Below are positions 9,345 to 22,452 of a stretch of DNA of 64,000 nucleotides, piece by piece (positions within the stretch are counted from its first letter, which is position 1; every line of letters starts with the position of its first letter). The notes under the pieces were generated by a model. It made no database searches. It was given only the letters and a program-made list of their open reading frames with translations, and had not been told where the DNA came from. The DNA comes from Candidatus Marinacidobacterales bacterium. GTDB lineage: Bacteria > Acidobacteriota > Vicinamibacteria > Marinacidobacterales > SMYC01. Both the position numbers and the translations under genes were made by a program. The stretch covers positions 7,072,001 through 7,136,000 of the forward strand of contig OZ250169.1 in the NCBI GenBank assembly GCA_965237955.1, in the 5' to 3' direction.

Positions 9345-10252
9345 ATGCGGGTGTTGGGTATCGATGCGGGAGCGACGAAGACGGAATGCCTCCTCGCGGA
9401 CGGCAAGGGAGTCGTTCTCGGGAAGGCCCGCGGCCCGGGCGGGAACTTCCAGCTGTATGACGAAGACGAGGTGGAGTTCGTGCTCGAGGACCTCACCACC
9501 CAAGTTCTTGCCGGCTATCGCGGTCCCGTGGACACGCTTTGTGTCGGGATGGCAGGCGCGGGGCGAGAACGCGACTTCCGCGCGATGCAACGCATTCTTC
9601 GCCGGATCGGGCGTGCGCGCGAAAACCTCGTCACCCATGACGCTCTCATCGCTCTCGTGGCGGGCGCCGGCGAGCAATACGGCGTCGTGCTCATCGTCGG
9701 CACCGGTGCAACTGCGTACGGTGTCAATCGCAAGGGCGTCACCGCGCGCGCGGGAGGCTGGGGCCCGCTTCTCGGGGACGAAGGCAGCGGCTACTGGATG
9801 GGGCTCCGTGCGCTTCGCGCCATCGTGCGGGCGCATGATGGCCGAGCCAAGCCGACGCTACTGAAAGAGTCCGTCCTCGGTCGCCTCGGCATCGACGACA
9901 CCGAGTCGCTCGTCCACCGCATCTATCGCGAGTTTGCCCGCGGAGAAATCGCCGCGCTCGCGCCCCTCGTCCAGCAGGCGGCTGACGTTGGTGACGAAGC
10001 AGCGCAAGCCATCGTCGATGATGCCATCCGGGAGTTCATGCGCTCGGTCGAGTCGGTCATCGGACAGCTCGAGATCGCGGGCGAGAACTTCCGCCTCGTT
10101 CTCTCCGGAGGCCTTTGGAAAGGAGTACCGGTGCTGCGCCAGGATTTCGAGCGAGTCGCGAAAAAATCGCTCCCTGGGTCACGGTGCATCTGCTCGACGT
10201 CGAGCCCGCCAGGGGCGCCGTCCAACTCGCGCTCGAGCACGGGCGGGCCTGA
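9345..10252 (+). CDS. BadF/BadG-type ATPase, N-acetylglucosamine/MurNAc kinase-like, with an apparent frameshift near 10177
   Basis: LGIDAGATKT, GTGATAYG and RAGGWGPLLGDEGSGYW. The expected C-terminus VTVHLLDVEPARGAVQLALE lies in another frame after a G run and stops at 10250-10252. Confidence 0.8.
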
Positions 10253-10287
10253 CGCCCCCCACGGGGGATGCCTCAGCGCAACAACTT

Positions 10288-10772
10288 CTAGTGGCCGTCT
10301 TCCAGAACCCGCCGGAGATCTCTATCGGCGGTGTCGAGGCGACGCTTCGCCTCGGCTAGCGAAACATCGAGACGGCCCATGACCACGGCAGTCTTCACGT
10401 CGTCCCTTGCAATCGAGAGCAGTTTCTCGGCGGCGTTACGATCGACGTGCGCAAGCGATTGGACCATACGCACGCCGCGATCCCGAAGCTTCGCGGACGT
10501 CGCCTTCAAGTCCACCATGTAGGGCCCGAACACTTTCTTGAGACGGATCATCGCGAGAAGCGTCATCTGGTTGAGAACGAGCTTGGTTGCCGTTCCCGCC
10601 TTCATGCGCGTGGATCCCGCGAGCACTTCGGGTCCGACTTCCGGCGCGATGACGACGTCAGCGACGCCGCGCACACGCGGACCGCAGGTGATGAGGACCG
10701 TCGCCGCGCGGTGCTCGCGCGCCACCGTGAGCGCACCGCGAACGAACGGTGTCACGCTACTCGCCGAGATCC
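10288..10772 (-). pseudogene. murQ: C-terminal fragment of N-acetylmuramic acid 6-phosphate etherase
   Basis: ISASSVTPFVRGAL, GPEVLAGSTRMKAGTATKLVLN and MVDLKATSAKL; the N-terminal half is absent. Confidence 0.85.
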
Positions 10773-10773
10773 G

Positions 10774-11088
10774 AGCGGACTTTTTGGATGGACGAGCGAG
10801 GAGTCCGACATAGGCCACATGGGGACCTATACGAGGTACAAAAACGGCGCTCGTCTTGCGGCCGGAATGTTCAAGATCTCCGAACAGATGGGTGACGTGC
10901 CCCCGAACTGGATGGTTTACTTCGCCGTCGATGATTGCGACGGCGCCGTCGAAAAAGCCCAACGAGCCGGAGCCAACGTCGTCGTGCCGCCTTCCGACAT
11001 CCCTGACGTGGGACGGTTCACGGTGCTCACGGATCCCCAGGGTGCGGCCTTCGCGATGATCCAGCTCAACGCGGCGGAGGAGAACTAG
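10774..11088 (+). pseudogene. C-terminal fragment of a VOC/glyoxalase family protein
   Basis: GLFGW...PPNWMVYFAVDDCD...DIPDVGRFTVLTDPQGAAF; the 5' part is missing at the junction with murQ. Confidence 0.75.
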
Positions 11089-11094
11089 CAACGC

Positions 11095-11616
11095 ATGCGG
11101 GCGGTCGTGCTCAGCCTCGCGCTTGTGCACGGCTGCTCACCAGGACCGCCGCCAGCCGATCTCGTCTTCGTCGGCGGCCCCGTCTACACCCAGGACGAAT
11201 CGTTACCCTGGGCCGAGGCTCTAGCGGTTCGAGGGGAGACCATCGTCTCGGTGGGAGCCCGCGTCGACGTCGAGGTGTTTATCGGTGAGTCCACCCAGGT
11301 CATCGATCTCGACGGCCGGCTCCTTATTCCGAGGCTCGAAGACGATGCACTCGTCGCGATCCACAAGGCCGTGACCGGTCGAACGCTTCGGGGGACCACG
11401 ATCGCAAGGAAGCTCGAGCGCATCGAAGACGCCATCGTCGAACACACTTCGAGCCCGCTCGTCGTGGGATCGCCCGCCGATCTCACCGTCCTCCAGGAGA
11501 ACATTCTGAAAATCGCCCCCGAGCGCATTGCAGAGGCCAAAGTGGAGATGTCCGTGGTTGGTGGCAACGTCACCTACGTTGCAACGACCTTCGACCACGC
11601 TTCTCGACGACGTTAG
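11095..11616 (+). CDS. Miniature YtcJ-like amidohydrolase homologue lacking the catalytic barrel; putative lipoprotein
   Basis: The N-terminal ADLVFVGGPVYT...AEALAVRGE...IDLDGRLLIP is joined almost directly to the C-terminal AIHKAVTGR...ADLTVL...VEMSVVGG. No HxH metal motif; signal ends LVHGC. Confidence 0.6.
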   Translation: MRAVVLSLALVHGCSPGPPPADLVFVGGPVYTQDESLPWAEALAVRGETIVSVGARVDVEVFIGESTQVIDLDGRLLIPRLEDDALVAIHKAVTGRTLRGTTIARKLERIEDAIVEHTSSPLVVGSPADLTVLQENILKIAPERIAEAKVEMSVVGGNVTYVATTFDHASRRR

Positions 11617-11831
11617 AGTAGGCACTCCCACGAGAGGTATGACATGAAAACGTTGCACGGGGCCGGACAGGGGCAGGGGCAGGGGTCATTTGATCGGCTG
11701 CACCCAAGTTGCGGCGGCTGGTATAGTCCATTAGAGTACGGCTCCAAAGTCTAGAGCGCCGGACCACCGATAGCGGAGATATCTGGTATCTCCAGCTGTT
11801 TGAGTGACTTAACTTCAACAGGAGGTGCGCT

Positions 11832-13175
11832 ATCCCTGAGCCCGAGCGTTTCTGGGAACAGGTCCTTCAACTCATCGAAGACGAGACCGTCATTCCCATT
11901 GTGGGACAAGACCTTCTCGAGGTGGACCATGACGGCCAGCAAACGCTCCTCTACCCGTTGCTCGCGGCCGAGTTCGCGCAACGCTTTGCGATCTCGTACT
12001 CCGATTTACCGCGTGGCGACGAGCTTCAGGAAGTCGCGCGGCGGTACCTGGCGACGTCGCACGACGTCCAAGATATCTATCGCGAGCTCAGGGTCATCTT
12101 GCGGGAGCTCGAGCCGATCGCCATTCCGAAGCCACTGGCTCAACTGGCCAACATTCCGAAGCTCAAGCTCTACGTCACAACCACGTTCGACTTCATGATG
12201 GAGCGCGCGATCAACGCCGCACGGTTCGAGGGGCAGCGACAGACGCTCGCGTTCTCCTATGCTCCCAATGACAAACAGGATCTTCCCCGAGAGTTCGACC
12301 GGCTGAATCGGCCGACGGTGTACCAGCTCATGGGGCGCTTTTCGGGCACGCCGCATAGCTACGCCGTCACCCACGAGGACACGCTCCGGTTCGTTCAATC
12401 CCTGCAGGCAAAGACGGAAGACTCGCCGAATATATTGTTCGACAAGCTCAAGAGCGGAAACCTTCTCATCCTCGGTAGCCACTTCGCTGACTGGATCGCG
12501 AGCTTCTTCATTCGTGGCGCGAGCGGAGGCCGGCAGATCGAGATCCCGATCGACTTCGCCGTCGAAAGCGATGCTCGCGGTCGAGTGCTCTTCCTTCAGC
12601 GTTTCAGCGGAGGCACCCGAGTCTTCCGCGGCGAAGGCGCGACCGGGTTCGTGGACGAGCTATCCCGCCGGTGGACCGAGTTGCAGCCGGAGGACGAGCC
12701 GGAGTCCCCGCCGTCGATAGGCGAATTGCAGTCCGGCGCGGTGTTTTTGAGCTACGCGCGCGGGGACCTGAGCGTGGCCGAGTCGATTCGGGACGCTCTC
12801 GATCGCGGCGGCGTCGATGTCGTCTTCGCGAGCGATGATTCAGCTGTCGGGGACAAGCGGGAGAAGAAGCTGAGAAGCTTCCTCGGCGAGTGTTCGCTGT
12901 TCATGCCCGTGGTCTCGAAACGTTCGATGACTGCCGAAAGGCGCTTTTTTCGCGCCGAGTGGGTAGAGGCTATATTAGAGGCGAGAAAAGCCATTCCATC
13001 GGGGCGGTTTGTCCTCCCGGTGGTCGTCGACGATACGTCACCGGCGGAGTCCGCAATTCCGGAGGAATTCGGTAAGCTAGATTGGAAGAGATGGACGAGC
13101 GGCAAACCCAACTCCAAGTTCGTGGAGACAGTCGTGCAGCTTCAGCGAAGCTACCGGAGCGCGAGTTTCGCATGA
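11832..13175 (+). CDS. SIR2-like domain + C-terminal TIR domain protein
   Basis: SIR2-like segments FWEQVLQLI..VIPIVGQDLL, YVTTTFD and LLILGSHFADW; TIR segments VFLSYARGD, CSLFMPVVS, FFRAEW and FVLPVVVDD. The frame is open upstream of the called GTG (11901) back to an ATC at 11832 after AGGAGG. Confidence 0.8.
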   Translation: MPEPERFWEQVLQLIEDETVIPIVGQDLLEVDHDGQQTLLYPLLAAEFAQRFAISYSDLPRGDELQEVARRYLATSHDVQDIYRELRVILRELEPIAIPKPLAQLANIPKLKLYVTTTFDFMMERAINAARFEGQRQTLAFSYAPNDKQDLPREFDRLNRPTVYQLMGRFSGTPHSYAVTHEDTLRFVQSLQAKTEDSPNILFDKLKSGNLLILGSHFADWIASFFIRGASGGRQIEIPIDFAVESDARGRVLFLQRFSGGTRVFRGEGATGFVDELSRRWTELQPEDEPESPPSIGELQSGAVFLSYARGDLSVAESIRDALDRGGVDVVFASDDSAVGDKREKKLRSFLGECSLFMPVVSKRSMTAERRFFRAEWVEAILEARKAIPSGRFVLPVVVDDTSPAESAIPEEFGKLDWKRWTSGKPNSKFVETVVQLQRSYRSASFA

Positions 13176-15898
13176 ACACCGAGGTCTCCTCGTTCCCGTC
13201 CAGTGTCGGTGTCGGTGTCGGACTCAATGACGATAATCCGTGGCCTGGGCTCCTGCCCTTCGAAGAAGCGGATTGGAAGTACTTCCACGGGCGGGAATTC
13301 GAGTCGGAAATGTTGTACCGCCGTGTCGAGCGCGAGCGGCTGACCATCCTGTTCGCGCCTTCCGGCCTGGGAAAATCTTCGATCTTGCAAGCGGGTCTGT
13401 TCCCGCTCTCGCGTCGGGAGAACGTCTTACCCGTCTACATCCGCCTCGACTTCTCGCAAGACAAGCCCGAGCTGTGCGGCCAAGTGAAGACTGCGATCGT
13501 CCGCGAGGCAGAGCGCGCTAACGTCGAAGCTCCCAAGCCCGAGCCCAAGGAAACATTGTGGGAGTTCCTGCATCGCAAAGATGCCGGATTCTGGAGCGTC
13601 CGCCATCAAGTTTTGAAACCGCTTCTGATCTTCGATCAGTTCGAGGAAGTGTTCACCTTGGGACAGCGCGACCGATCGCGCGCGCACGCGACCAACCTGT
13701 TCCTCACCGAGCTTTCCGATCTCGTCGAAGCGCGACCGCCAGTCCAGCTGAAGTCCAGACTGGAAATGGAGCCGCCCAACAAAAAGGAAAGTGAAGCCGA
13801 ACGTTTCGCCTTCGATCGTCACCGTTACAAGATTCTCATGAGCCTCAGGGAAGATTTCCTTCCCGACCTCGAAGGGCTTGGAGAGCGTATGGGCTCGGTC
13901 GCGCACAACCGCTTCCGCCTCGGACGCATGAACGGCGTCGCCGCGCTTCAAGTGGTCACCCAGGCGCCTCACATCATCGCCCCCGACGTGGCCGAAAAAG
14001 TGGTGCGCTTCGTCGCTGCCTCGGAGAAAGATGAATCGCTCGTCGATCTGGAAGTAGAACCGGCCCTTCTCAGCGTCGTATGCCAGGAGCTCAACAGCCA
14101 ACGCCAGGAGCGCCGCGAGGCACGCATCACCGAACAGACTCTCGAGGGATCTCAGAAACAAGTTCTCGCCGACTTCTACGAACGCAGCATTGCCGATCTC
14201 AGCGAACCGGTGTGTACCTTCGTAGAAGAGAAGCTCTTGACGCGCAGTGGTTTCCGCAATCTCGTCGTCTACGAGGAAGCCATCAGCGCGCCCGGCGTGA
14301 CCGAGGACGACATCGAAGAGCTCGTCAAACGCCGCTTGGTACGGATCGAGGAGCGCGGTCACCTGCGTCTTCTCGAGCTGACCCACGATCTCCTCACCGG
14401 AGTGGTGACCGCAAGTCGTGACGAGCGGCGCCGGCGCATCCGCGAAGCGGAAGCGGTGCGTAAAGTGGAGGAACAGCACCGGAAGAGCCTGAAAAGGGCA
14501 GCCATCTTGCTCGCCGGATTCCTGCTCGCCGTAGGCGCGCTCGGAGGTTTGGCGTGGGCTTACTTCGCGCAACGCCAAGCGACGGAGCTGGCACAGGCGA
14601 AAGAAGCAGCGGAGATGGCCGCGGACGAAGCGTCCCAACAGCGAGCGATCGCCGAATCGCAACGACAACAAGCGGAACGACTGCAGCGCGACGCCGAAAG
14701 AGCGCGTGAGCTCGCCGAGTCGGCCGCGGCTGAAGCATCGCTCCAGCATTCGATCGCGGACACACAGCGCGAAGAGGCAGTGCGACAAGAACAAGAGGCT
14801 TCGAACGCGCGCGCGGAGGCGGAGATGGCCGCCGACGACGCGTTGCTCCAAAAAAACTTGGCGGACCGACAGCGAAGCATAGCGGAACAGCGACAACAAG
14901 AGATCGAAGACAGTCAGAAACAGGCTCAGGAGACGAACGACGCCTTGGTCGAAGCGCTCAGGGAACGACTTTCCAGTCCGGACCCTGGTGAGGTCGTCGG
15001 CGCGCTCGATATGCTCGTTCGCGGTAGTCAAGACACGGAAGTCATCCTCGCCCGAGTGGACGACGAGTGGTTCGCATCCACTCGTGAGTTCGTCCCTCTC
15101 CTCGTGGCCTTGGACGCGCTGGCACCCAACCGGCCGAGCGAGAGGTCGAGCGCGCTCCGGGCCATGCTCGTGACCCGTTTCAGTCAACAACCAGGCTACA
15201 ATCCGCCGCCACCGACGCTGTACGGAGTGCAGCGCATCAAGCTCGCCGGCGGGGAGTTCCAAATGGGAACCGCTGAGCCATCGGGCAATCGCGACAATGG
15301 CGACGACCACGGTGGGCACCGGGTGCGCGTCTCACCGTTTTATATTCAGCAGCACGAAGTGACCAGCGCTGAGTACCGCCGGTTCGATCTAAACCACAAC
15401 CCCGGCGCGCCGGACGGCCATCCGGTGACGAACGTCAGCTGGTACGACGCGATGGCCTACGCCGCGTGGCTCGGTGGAAGCCTTCCCACAGAGGCACAAT
15501 GGGAGCTTGCGGCACGTGGTCAGGCGGGACGATCCTACCCCTGGGGGGATGAAGCACCTACGCCGACTCACGCAAACTACAATCGAGTCGGCACGACGCC
15601 GACAGGAGAGTTTCCCGATGGAGCAACGCCCGAGGGCGTGCACGATCTGGCGGGGAACGTTTGGGAGTGGTGTCGCGACGGCTCGTCGCCATCAACAGCA
15701 CGAGCACTCCAGCCGAACGTGATCCTCGTCGATCCTGTTGGCTCGCAGAGGACCAACACTCGAGTGTTGAAGGGCGGTTCTTATTTCAACGACGAACGGT
15801 TTCTCGTCGCCGCACAGCGCAATGTCCTTCATCCGGACGCGAGCGAAAGCGTCGTGGGTTTTCGCGTGGCGTGGCCGGCATCGCGTCCGACGCCGTGA
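13172..15898 (+). CDS. nSTAND1-type P-loop NTPase + transmembrane helix + coiled coil + FGE-sulfatase (C-lectin fold) domain
   Basis: NPWPGLLPF, Walker A APSGLGKSS, Walker B LLIFDQFEEVF, SLREDFL and ELTHDLL; TM AAILLAGFLLAVGALGGLAWAYFA; A/E/Q/R-rich coil; FGE motifs HPVTNVSWYDA, LPTEAQWE, DLAGNVWEW, KGGSY and GFRV. ATGA overlap with the upstream gene. Confidence 0.88.
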   Translation: MNTEVSSFPSSVGVGVGLNDDNPWPGLLPFEEADWKYFHGREFESEMLYRRVERERLTILFAPSGLGKSSILQAGLFPLSRRENVLPVYIRLDFSQDKPELCGQVKTAIVREAERANVEAPKPEPKETLWEFLHRKDAGFWSVRHQVLKPLLIFDQFEEVFTLGQRDRSRAHATNLFLTELSDLVEARPPVQLKSRLEMEPPNKKESEAERFAFDRHRYKILMSLREDFLPDLEGLGERMGSVAHNRFRLGRMNGVAALQVVTQAPHIIAPDVAEKVVRFVAASEKDESLVDLEVEPALLSVVCQELNSQRQERREARITEQTLEGSQKQVLADFYERSIADLSEPVCTFVEEKLLTRSGFRNLVVYEEAISAPGVTEDDIEELVKRRLVRIEERGHLRLLELTHDLLTGVVTASRDERRRRIREAEAVRKVEEQHRKSLKRAAILLAGFLLAVGALGGLAWAYFAQRQATELAQAKEAAEMAADEASQQRAIAESQRQQAERLQRDAERARELAESAAAEASLQHSIADTQREEAVRQEQEASNARAEAEMAADDALLQKNLADRQRSIAEQRQQEIEDSQKQAQETNDALVEALRERLSSPDPGEVVGALDMLVRGSQDTEVILARVDDEWFASTREFVPLLVALDALAPNRPSERSSALRAMLVTRFSQQPGYNPPPPTLYGVQRIKLAGGEFQMGTAEPSGNRDNGDDHGGHRVRVSPFYIQQHEVTSAEYRRFDLNHNPGAPDGHPVTNVSWYDAMAYAAWLGGSLPTEAQWELAARGQAGRSYPWGDEAPTPTHANYNRVGTTPTGEFPDGATPEGVHDLAGNVWEWCRDGSSPSTARALQPNVILVDPVGSQRTNTRVLKGGSYFNDERFLVAAQRNVLHPDASESVVGFRVAWPASRPTP

Positions 15899-15929
15899 GT
15901 GCATATCCGCATACACCTCGGGAGCAAAC

Positions 15930-17480
15930 ATGATCCGCGGCGTGGCGCTCGGCTTTGCCTTCACATTTGTTGGTACTTGTCTAGGTTCTGGCTCAATCGG
16001 TCTCTCGCAAGAGACGACGTCGACGGCACGGGAGCTCGGCGAGATCGAGCATACGCCCGCACCGTGTATGGACACCGAAGCGTTCCCGCTGATCGAAGCT
16101 CACGCTTCGAGCACGGCGGTCGCACGACGTTTGACGAGGCTGACCATTCGCTTCAAAGCCGAAGATGACGCCGCCGGTTGGTACGAGACGTCGTTTCGCT
16201 CGACGGCAGGCACCACGTTTCAGGGAGCACTTCCCAAACCGCTTCCCGATGCCGGCCGGGTTACGTATTACTTCACGTCCGCCGGGCGCCGGACCCCCGA
16301 CTACCTGGTGCCGGTTTTGATGGGCGGTTGCCCGGGAGCACGCACCGCATCATCCGACCTCGCCGATAACATTCGCGTGCGCCGGACGTCGGACGATCAA
16401 AGCCCAATCCCGACGGGGTTCAGCGCCGATGGAATCCGTACCGGTGGTTCGATATCTGGAATGACCCTCGGGATCGTGGCCGCCGCAGCCGGCGGAGCCG
16501 GTGTCGCGGCTCTGGTGATCTCCGGCGACGAGACTCCCCCCGAAAACGGAGGCGGCGGTCCCCCCAACCCGGAAGCGGTCCGTGCCTGTTTCACCCCGGA
16601 TCCGATCCCGAACATCAATTCGGGAGAAACGATCCTGTTCGACGCGTCGTGCACCACTCCGGCGACGGTGACGACGTATCAATGGGACTTCGGTGACGGG
16701 ATGACCGCGCAGGGCTCGAGCGTAGAGCATTTGTTCACGCCGGGAGCCATCTACTCGGTGACTCTCACCGCTACCGACGGGCCGCGCTCCGACAGCACGT
16801 CCCGGCTCGTCCGCGTGATCGCCACACCCAGTGCGTGCTTCATCACCAACCCCGACCCTCCCCGCATCGCCGCCAACGATACGGCCAATTTCAATGCCGA
16901 ATGCTCGGTCGGCGACCGCGATGGTGGTGCCGCCGAGATTACGAGATACGAGTGGGACTTCGGCGATGGCCGCCCTGGAGCGGAAGGTGTCTTCGTGTCG
17001 CGCCGGTTCCCGAATCCGGACGTGTTCGGTGTTCGACTGACGGTCACGAACGGGGACGAAATTCAGGACACGAACACGCAATTCGTCGTTGTCGAGAGCG
17101 AAGCGACAGCGAGTCGTGAGCCCACGCTTCGAGCGACGGACGTCACCTTCACCAGCGAGCTCGAGCTCCCTGAAGGAGACGAAGGCGTGCGCGCTCGAGT
17201 CTCCATCAACAACACGGGTCTCGTCACCACGACGGCCCCCTCCCGCCAGCAACATCGACTGCGAGGTCGACCGGGCGAAAACGTGATCGAAGCCCGGCTT
17301 TTAACAGAGGCGAGCGGTCCCGGCCGATGGCGATTCGATTTCAGCGGTGCCGCGAACTTCGTAGCCGGAAGCCTCCGCGTCGACTCCGGCCAGGCACTCG
17401 CGGTGGACAGTCACAGCGTCGTGTTCCGCCTGACGGGAAAACCGGGCCCGTTCGTTCGCTTCCGCTTCCGCCTCGAGTAG
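15930..17480 (+). CDS. Secreted/membrane protein with two PKD domains
   Basis: Signal-like N-terminus; hydrophobic GIVAAAAGGAGVAALV segment; two PKD cores (YQWDFGDG, YEWDFGDG) followed by VTLTATD and VRLTVTN; GGAG RBS. Confidence 0.8.
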   Translation: MIRGVALGFAFTFVGTCLGSGSIGLSQETTSTARELGEIEHTPAPCMDTEAFPLIEAHASSTAVARRLTRLTIRFKAEDDAAGWYETSFRSTAGTTFQGALPKPLPDAGRVTYYFTSAGRRTPDYLVPVLMGGCPGARTASSDLADNIRVRRTSDDQSPIPTGFSADGIRTGGSISGMTLGIVAAAAGGAGVAALVISGDETPPENGGGGPPNPEAVRACFTPDPIPNINSGETILFDASCTTPATVTTYQWDFGDGMTAQGSSVEHLFTPGAIYSVTLTATDGPRSDSTSRLVRVIATPSACFITNPDPPRIAANDTANFNAECSVGDRDGGAAEITRYEWDFGDGRPGAEGVFVSRRFPNPDVFGVRLTVTNGDEIQDTNTQFVVVESEATASREPTLRATDVTFTSELELPEGDEGVRARVSINNTGLVTTTAPSRQQHRLRGRPGENVIEARLLTEASGPGRWRFDFSGAANFVAGSLRVDSGQALAVDSHSVVFRLTGKPGPFVRFRFRLE

Positions 17481-17519: not shown

Positions 17520-17625
17520 AGCCTTTCTTAGCAAGTCCCTCTCTATCTGCTTCGGCGGGTCCGCCGTAGCCTTTGGCGGAGGCGGAGGGGGAGAGGACAG
17601 GTGAGGGGGATCTCCCGGCCCCCCC
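17520..17625. repeat. REP-like GC-rich palindromic repeat
   Basis: CCCTCTC...GGGAGAGG arms flank CCGCCGTAGCCTTTGGCGGAGGCGG; a related GCCGTAGCCTTGCGCGAAG occurs at about 35370. Confidence 0.5.
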
Positions 17626-17803: not shown

Positions 17804-19729
17804 GGGCCGCCGACAAAATAACTGTCTAGTTTTGAGCACACTCTTCCTGTTTCAGGTCGTGATCGCGATGTCGCCTGGCATCACGAGAGCCTGGCAAGCT
17901 CCCTAGAAACGGAACATTTGTAGATCTTCAGCAACCAGCGCGTGTTTGACAAACGGTCCTCATTTTAGGTAGGATTACACCTATCAAGGAGCACTTCTCC
18001 TATTATAAGACCTACGAGCTATCAGTCTGAAGATCTCGACCGCCTGTTGAGGAAGCACAAAATAGCTACCCTCGATGATTTGAAGGCAGTGTTGGGTACC
18101 GATGTGGACTCGACCGTCTTCCGAAAGCTCAATGAGTTGGCGTATCGGACAAGCTACTCCCACCGTGGTAGCTACTACACGTTGGACGAGATCGCCCAGT
18201 TCGATCGAAAAGGTCTTTGGTCGTTGCGCTCAGTGTGGTTCTCGAAGTACGGGACGTTGCTTGCGACGGTAAAAGCGTTGGTCGCGGCCTGTGAGGCAGG
18301 CTACTACGTCGACGAGCTCGAGGACGAGGTGCAGGTTGACGTCAAGGCTCCTCTGTTGAAACTGGTCCGAGAGAAAAGATTGGCGCGCGAGCAGGTGTTC
18401 GGCCGATATCTGTATCTGGCCACCGATGTGAGCACGCGCAAGCAACAGCTCTCGGCCCGCCAGGTACATGAGGCGTCACCTTCCACGTTGGGCTGGGTCG
18501 GGGGAGTCCGCGTGCTCCCCGTGGAGTTGAAGGCTGCGATCGTTCTTTTCTACAGCCTGCTCGATGAAAAGCAGCGCCGTCTCTACGCGGGAGTCGAGGC
18601 CATGAAGCTCGGTCACGGTGGCGACCAACAGATTGCCGAACTGCTCGGGATGGATCCGAGCACGGTAGCCAGAGGTCGTAGGGAATTACTAATGAGAGAT
18701 GTTGCGCTCGACGGAGTTCGGCGAAAGGGTGGCGGACGGCGCGCCGTGCAAAAAAAACGCCAGAAGTCATCGCCAAGATCGAAGAACTCATGAAGCACGA
18801 CACCGCGGGCGATCCGATGACGGGAGTGAAATGGACGCGGCGGACCACCGACAAGATTGCTTGCGAGCTAAGAAGCCTCGGTGTGAACGTCAGCAGCAAA
18901 ACCGTCGGTCGACTGCTCAAACAGCTCGGCTTCTCGTTGCGGGTGAACCACAAGAAGCTGTGCGGTGCCACGTCCGAAGATCGCGATACCCAATTCGCGT
19001 GTATTGCCGAACTGCGCGAGCGTTTTGCCGCAGCTGGTCATCCCATCATCAGCGTAGACACGAAGAAACGGGAGCTGGTGGGATTATTCAAAAACGGCGG
19101 GTAGGCCTGGAACCGCGAGCCGACTCTCGTCAAAGACCATGACTTCCGTTCCGAATCGAACGGCATCGCAATCCCCTACGGCGTCTACGATCTGCTCGCG
19201 AACCGCGGGACAGTGTTCATTGGTACCTCGTACAACACCCCGGACTTCGCCGTGAATGCCATCGAGAAGTGGTGGCGAACGGAAGGACGGCGACGCTATC
19301 CTGCAGCCCGTGACCTCGCGATATTGGCAGACGCCGGGGGCAGCAATGGCTATCGGTGTCGGGGTTGGAAGCACGGGCTTCAAACGCGGATTTGCAATCG
19401 CCACGACATCGCTATCACCATAGCCCACTATCCGTCCGGTACATCCAAGTGGAATCCAGTGGAGCACCGTCTGTTCAGCGAGATCAGCAAGAACTGGGCG
19501 GGCAGGCCTCTCGACAGCTACGAAACCATCCTCAAATACATCCGCACGACCACCACCTCTTCCGGTTTGCGAGTACGCGCACACCTTATCCGGCGTCGTT
19601 ATCCGAAGGGCGTCAAAATCACTGACGAGCGGATGCAGGCGCTTTCCGTTACAAAGGACCAGACTCTACCCAAATGGAACTACACCATCCGACCGTCTTG
19701 AAAACGGGAACTTATTTTGTCGCCGGCCC
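17804..19729 (+). mobile_element. ISAzo13-family insertion sequence
   Basis: Terminal inverted repeats GGGCCG(C/G)CGACAAAATAA; TTA duplicated at 17801-17803 and 19730-19732; lower GC than the flanks. Confidence 0.88.
18047..19701 (+). pseudogene. ISAzo13-family transposase (A8 slippery site at about 18750; in-frame TAG at 19102-19104)
   Basis: LDEKQRRLYAG, AGDPMTGVKWT, ISVDTKKRELVG, ADAGGSNG, HYPSGTSKWNPVEHRLFS and WNYTI. Confidence 0.85.
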
Positions 19730-21222: not shown

Positions 21223-22452
21223 TTAGTAGAGAAGATGCTCGGCGCGAACCCTCAAGAACCGCTCGAGCGCCGGCCGCTCACTCTCGAGGATGTCCTCGAC
21301 CGACATGCCTTCCTCGATCGCGCGGCGAGGACGGTCTGTACCGAGCAAGCGATCGATCCAGTAGCGCCCGTCATTGTGGATCCATTCAAAATCGTCCGGA
21401 TGAAGTGTCCGGATCGCAACGATCACTTCGAGCCCGGTTCGCACGGCGTCGAGCTCGTGAGGCGAGGTCATCGTCAGCTCGACGCCTGAACAACGCTCGT
21501 TCTCGTACTTGGGCCGCGGCGCAGCGTCGGTCTTTCGGGGGACGAAGCTGGTCGGACGAAACGACGCGCCCGCTAGATCGAGCCTGTTGAGGACCGAGCT
21601 CAACCGCCCGCCGTCGATCCACGGCGCGCCGATCCTCTCGAACGTCTCGTCGATACCTCGCCCTTCGGACACGTTGATTCCCTCGAGTAACCCGAGGGCC
21701 GGATAAGCGAGCGCCGCACGCGGCGAACGAATATTCGGCGAGGGCGCGATCCACGGGAGTCCGGTCTCTTCCCAGATCAGATCGCGTGTCCACCCGCGAG
21801 CGAGCACAACGTCGAGCTCGAGATCGTCGTCTTTGAACAACTGCGCGAACTCCCCAACCGTCATACCGTGCACGAGCGGGATGGGCGCAACACCAACGAA
21901 CGAGGTGAACTCCGAGTCGAGCACGGGACCTTCGACGCGGGTACCGCCGTTCGGATTGGGCCGGTCGAGCACGACGAACGCGACACCGGCTTCGGCCGCC
22001 GCGTCCATCGCAAGCTTCATCGTGCTGATGTAAGTGTAAAAGCGGACCCCGATGTCTTGAATGTCGAACACGAGAGCGTCGATGCGTGCGAGCATCTCAC
22101 GAGTCGGAGCACGAATGTCTCCGTAGAGACTGAAGACAGGAATCACACCCGACTCGTCCGACGACACCTCATCCCCCGCCACCGCATCACCGGCAAACCC
22201 ATGCTCCGGCGAAAAAAGCGCTACGACATCGAGCCCCAACTCCCCCCGAAACACCTGGAGCGTCGGCGTCCCATCGATCGCCCGCCCCGTGTGATTGGTA
22301 ATGAGCCCAAGACGCTTCCCCCGAAGATGCGAAAGTCGCTCGCCCTCGAGGCGAACAACATCAACACCAGGCCTAACGACCGTTGCCGACGTCTGGAGAA
22401 GAGAAAGGTGTAAAGCGCTAGCAAAGACGACGCTAAGAAGCTTCACCGCCAA
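21223..22452 (-). CDS. namZ: DUF1343 / NamZ-like exo-beta-N-acetylmuramidase
   Basis: GLITNHTG, LFSPEHGF, FDIQDIGVRFYTY, LDRPNP, HGMTVGE, PSPNI and SEGRG; signal peptide. Confidence 0.88.
   Translation of the reverse strand: MAVKLLSVVFASALHLSLLQTSATVVRPGVDVVRLEGERLSHLRGKRLGLITNHTGRAIDGTPTLQVFRGELGLDVVALFSPEHGFAGDAVAGDEVSSDESGVIPVFSLYGDIRAPTREMLARIDALVFDIQDIGVRFYTYISTMKLAMDAAAEAGVAFVVLDRPNPNGGTRVEGPVLDSEFTSFVGVAPIPLVHGMTVGEFAQLFKDDDLELDVVLARGWTRDLIWEETGLPWIAPSPNIRSPRAALAYPALGLLEGINVSEGRGIDETFERIGAPWIDGGRLSSVLNRLDLAGASFRPTSFVPRKTDAAPRPKYENERCSGVELTMTSPHELDAVRTGLEVIVAIRTLHPDDFEWIHNDGRYWIDRLLGTDRPRRAIEEGMSVEDILESERPALERFLRVRAEHLLY

Follow-up and report, generated by a model that had tools for sequence, protein, structure and literature searches.

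How a bacterial STAND NTPase that carries no effector of its own might report events outside the inner membrane is the question raised by a three-gene locus of Candidatus Marinacidobacterales bacterium (Acidobacteriota; assembly GCA_965237955.1), located at positions 11820 to 17480 of a 64,000-nucleotide stretch of contig OZ250169.1, here called the window. The three genes are co-oriented on the forward (+) strand: gene 1 (11832..13175; 447 aa) encodes a SIR2-like and TIR_2 domain protein, predicted to be cytoplasmic from Pfam, the AlphaFold model and a hydropathy scan that found no hydrophobic segment; gene 2 (13172..15898; 908 aa) encodes an effectorless nSTAND1 NTPase with one predicted transmembrane (TM) helix, a coiled coil and an FGS domain; and gene 3 (15930..17480; 516 aa) encodes a likely secreted Ig/PKD protein. 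Genes 1 and 2 share a 4-base ATGA overlap (13172-13175), and 31 bases separate the stop of gene 2 from gene 3, which confirms the layout reported in an earlier note made from the sequence alone. With moderate confidence, we propose that the locus encodes an immune-type receptor working across the envelope, the output of which would be damped in the host family.

The genomic context of gene 1 was analyzed in 160 loci, namely the best 80 of at least 590 genome matches and the best 80 of at least 572 metagenome matches. The NTPase gene follows gene 1 in 142 of these loci, lying within 250 bases in 139 and overlapping by 4 bases in 91, and all 18 loci without it end no more than 531 bases from gene 1. 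Given this distribution, genes 1 and 2 are the core unit, and the split of effector and sensor over two genes that the earlier note had assumed is a general feature of the system. The pair is found in Acidobacteriota, Verrucomicrobiota, Pseudomonadota, Nitrospirota, Bacteroidota and Planctomycetota.

Pfam matches to gene 2 comprise nSTAND1 (PF20703; residues 23-409, E 8e-26) and FGE-sulfatase (PF03781; residues 688-901, E 2e-46). In the alignment, the nSTAND1 module (13238..14398) is intact: Lys68, DQFEE, Arg226, Pro297 and His-Asp 405-406, which we take to be the STAND Walker A, Walker B, sensor arginine, conserved proline and winged-helix motifs, are invariant in 14/14 family rows and 84/84 rows from outside the family. 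Because it scores 92 bits, compared with 283 for a typical nSTAND1 member, the NTPase appears to represent a divergent nSTAND1 subfamily; its profile matched none of the solved structures searched. The module starts at residue 23 without a preceding N-terminal domain, and Pfam found no effector-associated domain (EAD) in gene 1 or gene 2. Gene 2 has one hydrophobic segment, scored at residues 443-461. The predicted TM helix (residues 443-465; 14498..14566) is rich in alanine and glycine and has its basic residues on the NTPase side; it is followed by a coiled coil, at about residues 466-600, that was read by eye, and by the FGS domain, which has the C-type lectin fold (15233..15874). Alignment with solved FGEs places GGSYFNDERF of gene 2 against GGSYLCHDSYCNRY, and the cysteines of the active-site CxxxxC are absent, so that the FGS domain is non-catalytic as judged from its residues, in agreement with the earlier reading of the whole architecture. 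Diversification of the FGS end by a diversity-generating retroelement (DGR) was considered and rejected: the last 42 residues are 72-83% identical among 12 host-family orthologues, and a search of the genome for a template repeat matching the final 240 bases of the gene was negative, second matches being no better than E 0.12. The three intact reverse transcriptases encoded in this genome (460-485 aa) resemble, by eye, those of group II introns.

A single hydrophobic helix directly follows the NTPase in 93 of the 94 complete partners longer than 550 aa, the exception being frameshifted. The mean net charge around the helix is +3.7 before and +0.8 after it, and the preceding side is the more positive in 89/93 proteins. 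From hydropathy and charge, we predict that gene 2 has its C-terminus outside the cytoplasm, which favors the earlier placement of the lectin domain beyond the inner membrane. Of the 90 C-terminal parts, 39 were chosen manually to cover their variety and scanned: 18 contain WD40, 5 FGS (one with Lcl_C), 3 TPR, one LRR and one L7/L12 domains; 5 are pYEATS-like (best E 3e-4, with two of them recognized just from the motif), one is a weak RHS match and 5 are unassigned. Thus, the cytoplasmic pair is fixed and the far end is swappable, as one would expect of a receptor family. In two of the loci (L013:10823-11620 and L018:10856-11449), a LytR_C/SPOR-like domain (E 0.05) follows the TM helix, in the first along with a cysteine-rich repeat. 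A GmrSD domain in L025 was set aside as it resembles read-through into a separate gene, and the frameshifted locus L064 was set aside as well.

The Pfam matches of gene 1 are SIR2_2 (residues 113-228, E 3e-7) and TIR_2 (304-422, E 9e-13), and the AlphaFold model (pLDDT 85) consists of two domains joined by a loose linker, with the closest folds being ThsA, which ranks first, Avs5, DSR2 and KomC. Active immune sirtuins are described as carrying GAGxS, TTNxD and HG or NG motifs (PMC12931631), and such motifs are likewise given in the work on FAM118 (PMC12700824). In the SIR2-like domain of gene 1 (about residues 1-285; 11832..12686), GQDL replaces GAGxS, TTTFD replaces TTNxD and QLMG replaces HxHG. 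Across 167 aligned rows, the position of the catalytic asparagine is occupied by threonine (Thr118) in 165 and that of the catalytic histidine by leucine, phenylalanine or methionine in all 167; among 147 representatives below 50% identity, 6 have the asparagine and none the histidine, and at the histidine position neither histidine nor asparagine is seen in any of 146. Judged by these residues, the SIR2-like half is catalytically dead, contrary to the NAD-consuming role assigned to it earlier. Given that the domain persists, though inactive, in a protein that invariably comes with an effectorless STAND, it is best read as a docking piece for the latter. The dead SIR2-like domains form a large family, comprising 948 clusters when matches up to E 1e-30 are grouped at 50% identity, and its best 150 representatives are all at most 615 aa long; a search with residues 1-285 for longer proteins found no fused SIR2-STAND form, which is weak evidence. 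Elsewhere, the domain is fused to a Ser/Thr kinase, to bDLD3 plus TIR, or lies between two TIRs (P0132, P0147, P0228 and P0241), and such varied fusions fit the expectation for a modular adaptor.

The TIR domain (about residues 300-447; 12729..13172) retains Tyr308 and Glu376, with Val331 and Ala333 standing where W-x-D is otherwise conserved, so that its activity in the window is uncertain. The assignment of the catalytic Glu376 was made by eye from the TIR_2 pattern, and a HMMER alignment to SARM1 registers this helix differently. Outside the host family, Tyr308, Asp333, Gly340 and Glu376 are each retained in 84/84 rows; among the 14 rows from inside it, Tyr308 is found in 6, Asp333 in 6, Gly340 in 8, Glu376 in 9 and Trp331 in none, with position 376 occupied by aspartate in one genus and in genome G006, and by glutamine in G003. 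At a matched NTPase identity of 78%, the SIR2 and TIR parts of gene 1 are 58% and 59% identical inside the family (59 pairs), as against 79% and 71% outside it (707 pairs), the pairs counted being non-independent. The TIR motifs of the host family are thus apparently eroding, and the plainly active NADase previously supposed for this lineage is not what the alignment indicates.

The genomic neighborhood of the relatives bears out the immune context that had been suggested. Among 58 loci of at least 12 kb from outside the family, 23 have TPR-S-cyclase, SLOG/SLATT-type or TIR-TPR neighbors, a count given without a background rate; TPR-S, SLOG/SLATT and pYEATS we take to be domains of conflict systems, going by their Pfam names and general knowledge. 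Over the loci outside the family, SLOG/SLATT-type neighbors are found in 11 and TPR-S-cyclase neighbors in 25. The latter consist of a TPR-S plus adenylate/guanylate cyclase gene that adjoins the pair up- or downstream (L037:5249-7135, L052:12669-14561 and 23 further loci; Betaproteobacteria) and may form with it a three-gene subtype. In one distant representative of the gene 1 family, P0147, the bacterial Death-like domain bDLD3 is inserted between SIR2 and TIR, which supports the immune reading because bDLD is the adaptor of the nSTAND1-FGS systems of Kaur et al. discussed below.

Gene 1 appears to start with an unusual codon. Downstream of an in-frame stop at 11805, there is no ATG, GTG or TTG up to Trp8, a residue of the first helix that is invariant in 99/99 rows, and an ATC (11832-11834) is located 6 bases 3' of a Shine-Dalgarno AGGAGG (the whole element spanning 11820..11834). 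Translation of gene 1 most likely begins at this codon. ATC, ATT or, once, GTT follows a Shine-Dalgarno-like motif in 30/30 host-family rows, duplicates included, and likewise in G003 and G007; outside the family, 111 of 132 gene 1 loci have an ATG nearby, and 9 of the 21 that do not carry ATC or ATT at the start site. Together, these counts make a conserved non-AUG start well supported by the comparison, and such a start causes public annotations to truncate gene 1. AUU starts are known, and by analogy with them the AUC start may be expected to reduce expression of gene 1. Contigs from four public runs cover the stretch, and among the rows listed there is no difference at the ATC codon. A promoter scan of the locus gave matches at chance level only.

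Gene 3 encodes a protein that combines a likely signal peptide, read by eye, an Ig-like domain, a Gly/Ala-rich hydrophobic linker, two PKD domains (Pfam matches at 228-289 and 307-386) and a C-terminal beta-sandwich; the structure model contains four beta-sandwich domains with the Gly-rich hydrophobic linker being loose. Its six cysteines are invariant in 13/13 orthologues. Fold searches yielded only generic Ig/PKD chains and, in the Atlas, unnamed matches under 0.8. Within the 160 loci, the gene 3 query matched those of the host family only, and the gene is one of six paralogues in the genome, from which we conclude that it is by sequence an addition specific to the host family. The conservation of the neighborhood thus holds in part, with the pair of genes 1 and 2 recurring widely and gene 3 being limited to the host family, and gene 3 is not supported as a core co-receptor; a role as co-receptor is possible on the basis of adjacency. 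The other paralogues (G000:C1:4301360-4303039, 6599413-6600876, 7226071-7227342, 2230398-2231876 and 5536450-5538276) make up a lineage-expanded, likely secreted family with an N-terminal Ig-like domain, a Gly/Ala-rich hydrophobic segment, variable middles and, at the C-terminus, an unnamed beta-sandwich of about 115 aa; related matches occur in 6/7 genomes of a sister family.

Among the matches listed, the nearest loci come from Candidatus Marinacidobacterales, and in a quick tree built from 82 of the 99 aligned rows the NTPase of the window falls with them into a 13-row clade with 100% SH-aLRT support. Gene 1 was found in 15/18 other host-family genomes, with G002 adding only a match at E 7e-4, and in 0/42 sampled relatives outside the family; a class-wide scan detected it in 11/14 host-family genomes and, patchily, in 5/186 others. 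All three genes are single-copy and together in 13/18 host-family genomes, counting G014, where the locus is split over two contigs, and G016, where it is frameshifted; it runs to contig edges in G003 and G010, and the queries used gave no match in G004 and G011 or, that weak one aside, in G002 (all three 93-97% complete). The trio stays whole while its flanks vary among at least five groups. The G016 locus (L195; G016:C24:143000-160000) has frameshifts in all three genes, reflecting either sequencing error or decay.

The layout itself, which the earlier note set apart from the soluble Avs and NACHT systems, proves to be catalogued in outline, with a different TIR partner. Kaur, Iyer, Burroughs and Aravind (2021, PMC8195603) described nSTAND1-FGS counter-invader systems with a separate adjacent TIR gene, and in their supplement nSTAND1+TM occurs 461 times, nSTAND1+TM+FGS 4 times, in two proteins, and TIR+DrHyd 103 times; in the 22 places listed, the last of these is mostly the gene that precedes an nSTAND1(+TM)+repeat gene lacking an effector. 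Common to these systems and the window are an nSTAND1 NTPase ending in FGS and a TIR encoded by its own gene next to it, but their partner is TIR+DrHyd rather than dead SIR2 plus TIR, they have an N-terminal effector or EAD fusion or a homotypic EAD pair, of which the trio has neither, and their FGS domains are frequently diversified by DGRs, for which no template was found in the genome here. The possibility that the TIR+DrHyd partner is gene 1 itself was rejected on two loci; in L186, the partner shares only the TIR, and the NTPase aligns at 26%. The partner with a dead SIR2 thus remains the part of the layout that has not been listed in what was searched: the string 'SIR2+TIR' occurs nowhere in 12 supplement files of that paper, the accessions of two members of the pair are absent from file 1, and no mention of SIR2 was found in the passages of Kaur 2020 consulted.

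Several other systems are comparable. PCTM (10.64898/2026.10.19.760177) combines an upstream effector gene with an NTPase, a TM helix and a variable periplasmic domain, sometimes with a downstream extracellular protein, and the same logic is proposed for it as for the window trio, in both cases from the genes; it differs in having a ParA NTPase instead of a STAND, SLATT, caspase or CPPC-4h effectors and a third gene of the TAXI family. The STAND-CLec proteins of Thiohalocapsa PB-PSB1 (Dore et al., 10.1101/2023.09.22.558884) are nSTAND1/NACHT NTPases with a C-terminal FGE/CLec domain, some of them predicted to be periplasmic, and their CLec end is hypermutated by a DGR, whereas that of the window is conserved. 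Periplasmic sensing by membrane NTPases has accordingly been proposed already, by Kibby et al., by Dore et al. and for PCTM. In Avs5 (AVAST type 5; PMC12931631), a SIR2_2-type domain works with a STAND NTPase, as would gene 1, the fold of which matches Avs5; however, Avs5 combines an active SIR2 (TTNxD, HG or NG) and an nSTAND3 in a single soluble chain, whereas in the window the SIR2 is dead and on a separate gene, and the NTPase is an nSTAND1 with a TM helix. Thoeris type I (ThsB TIR plus ThsA SIR2-SLOG) likewise has TIR and SIR2 domains, but in gene 1 the two are fused, the SIR2 lacks catalytic residues and there is no SLOG, and a STAND receptor is the fixed partner. No paper naming the pair of dead-SIR2-TIR and nSTAND1-TM was found in a literature search that did not extend to bioRxiv supplements; a paper on nucleotide-centric systems and a 2020 paper on immune components may describe it. 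What the locus in the window contributes beyond the recurring module is a trio fixed in one family, a non-AUG start that is conserved and a TIR undergoing erosion.

We therefore favor the immune-type receptor with the following scheme. We predict that gene 2 crosses the inner membrane, the lectin-fold domain lying outside and the STAND ATP switch inside. The FGS domain would bind a conserved envelope-side ligand, be it a glycan or a surface part of a phage or predator; the coil and the TM helix would relay the signal, upon which the STAND would exchange its nucleotide and oligomerize; the dead SIR2 domain of gene 1 would dock on the oligomer, much as the SIR2 of the single-chain Avs5 rests on its STAND; and the clustered TIRs might act on NAD+, whether as a weak NADase or by generating a signal, with output likely damped in the host family. 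The AUC start would keep gene 1 scarce, and gene 3 may have joined in this family as an accessory protein of the periplasm. This reading draws on the coupling of the two genes in 142/160 loci, 91 of them by the 4-base overlap, the TM helix with its positive-inside bias, the swapping of C-terminal domains among typical sensor folds, some of an exported type (Lcl_C, the weak LytR_C, the cysteine-rich repeat), the intact TIR motifs and conflict-system neighbors outside the family, the Glu376 and Tyr308 retained in the window, and the patchy presence across the class. Several observations weigh against it. The topology of gene 2 comes from hydropathy and charge only, and the L7/L12 C-terminal domain that follows the TM helix in L032 is usually a cytoplasmic fold; none of nine long host-family loci has TPR-S-cyclase, SLOG/SLATT-type or TIR-TPR neighbors, the flanks of the trio in the window being housekeeping genes and an insertion sequence; the TIR of the host family is eroding; and the locus is single-copy and near-fixed there, unlike most defense systems. 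In PADLOC (2023 database), genes 2 and 3 match no model and gene 1 gives just a weak TIR match (E 0.0055), so that the check proposed earlier produced no named system, and an NCBIfam search of the trio proteins returned no system name.

The alternative that survives best, unlikely as we consider it, is domestication, whereby the host-family TIR would have given up catalysis for a scaffold role, like that of animal Toll adaptors, and the trio would serve routine, non-suicidal envelope-sensing or host-contact signaling. The low identity of gene 1 within the family, the substitutions of Glu376, the persistence of the whole trio amid changing flanks and the conserved sensor end without a DGR template are all consistent with this; however, the compared pairs are not independent and the faster change of gene 1 may equally reflect escape from phage inhibitors, Glu376 is kept in 9/14 family rows including the window, and the analysis turned up no downstream partner on which such a scaffold could act. 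Relatives with intact TIRs share the non-AUG start, which hence predates the erosion. Rather more speculative is the notion of a bacterial Toll-like receptor in transition, a single-pass protein of NLR type with a lectin ectodomain, an Ig/PKD co-receptor, a sirtuin and then a TIR turned scaffold, family-fixed non-lethal envelope signaling, and the dose of the adaptor set by the AUC/AUU start; we regard this picture as rather unlikely.

A fully active abortive infection system along the lines of the earlier note, with NAD+ depleted by SIR2 and TIR alike and gene 3 serving as obligate co-receptor, is improbable: gene 3 does follow gene 2 in every family genome with the stretch assembled, its six cysteines are invariant and Glu376 is retained in the window, but the catalytic residues of SIR2 are absent, the TIR motifs are eroding, and gene 3 has five paralogues in the genome, its query matching none of the loci outside the family. 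Just as doubtful is a helix that does not cross the membrane, which would make gene 2 a soluble or membrane-tethered, Avs-like cytoplasmic sensor of phage proteins. In tested STANDs, WD40 and TPR sensors are located in the cytoplasm, the helix is rich in alanine and glycine, the L7/L12 domain of L032 points the same way, and Kaur et al. (PMC8195603) term FGS an intracellular sensor; against this stand the retention of the helix in 93/94 partners whatever the C-terminal domain, its strongly basic inner flank, and the exported-type domains and paired cysteines that come after it in several relatives. A reversed, Thoeris-like flow, in which the TIR would sense infection and make a nucleotide signal for an effector that is the membrane STAND or a neighboring SLATT or cyclase, recalls the SLOG/SLATT-type and TPR-S-cyclase neighbors outside the family and the existing TIR-SLATT Thoeris types (10.64898/2025.12.03.692087) but is very improbable, with the variable part being the C-terminus of gene 2, as in a sensor, and the window genome giving no SLOG/SLATT or TPR-S-cyclase match to the queries used.

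The bacterial NLR-like proteins tested to date sense in the cytoplasm, and STAND signaling across a membrane has so far only been proposed in print; a compact operon such as this one makes it testable. The large dead-SIR2 family with its swapped ectodomains provides natural chimeras, and the host family, which retains the genes while their TIR active site decays, supplies a natural gradation between enzymatic and scaffold TIRs, the change also seen in animal Toll signaling.

Downstream of gene 3, a hairpin is weak (z -1.9), and a short G+C-rich, REP-like repeat (17549-17600) has nine further matches in the genome and shows very high depth and many loose ends in public runs. Genes for cell-wall recycling, namely a BadF-type sugar kinase, a MurQ-like fragment and a NamZ muramidase, surround the trio (9345-11130 and 21223-22452) and are not retained beside it in other genera. 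An ISAzo13-family element (18047-19701; PF07592) recurs about 30 times in the genome in near-identical form; in L022, from a genome of another genus, a copy that is 98-99% identical lies near the trio, which suggests recent transfer of this element.

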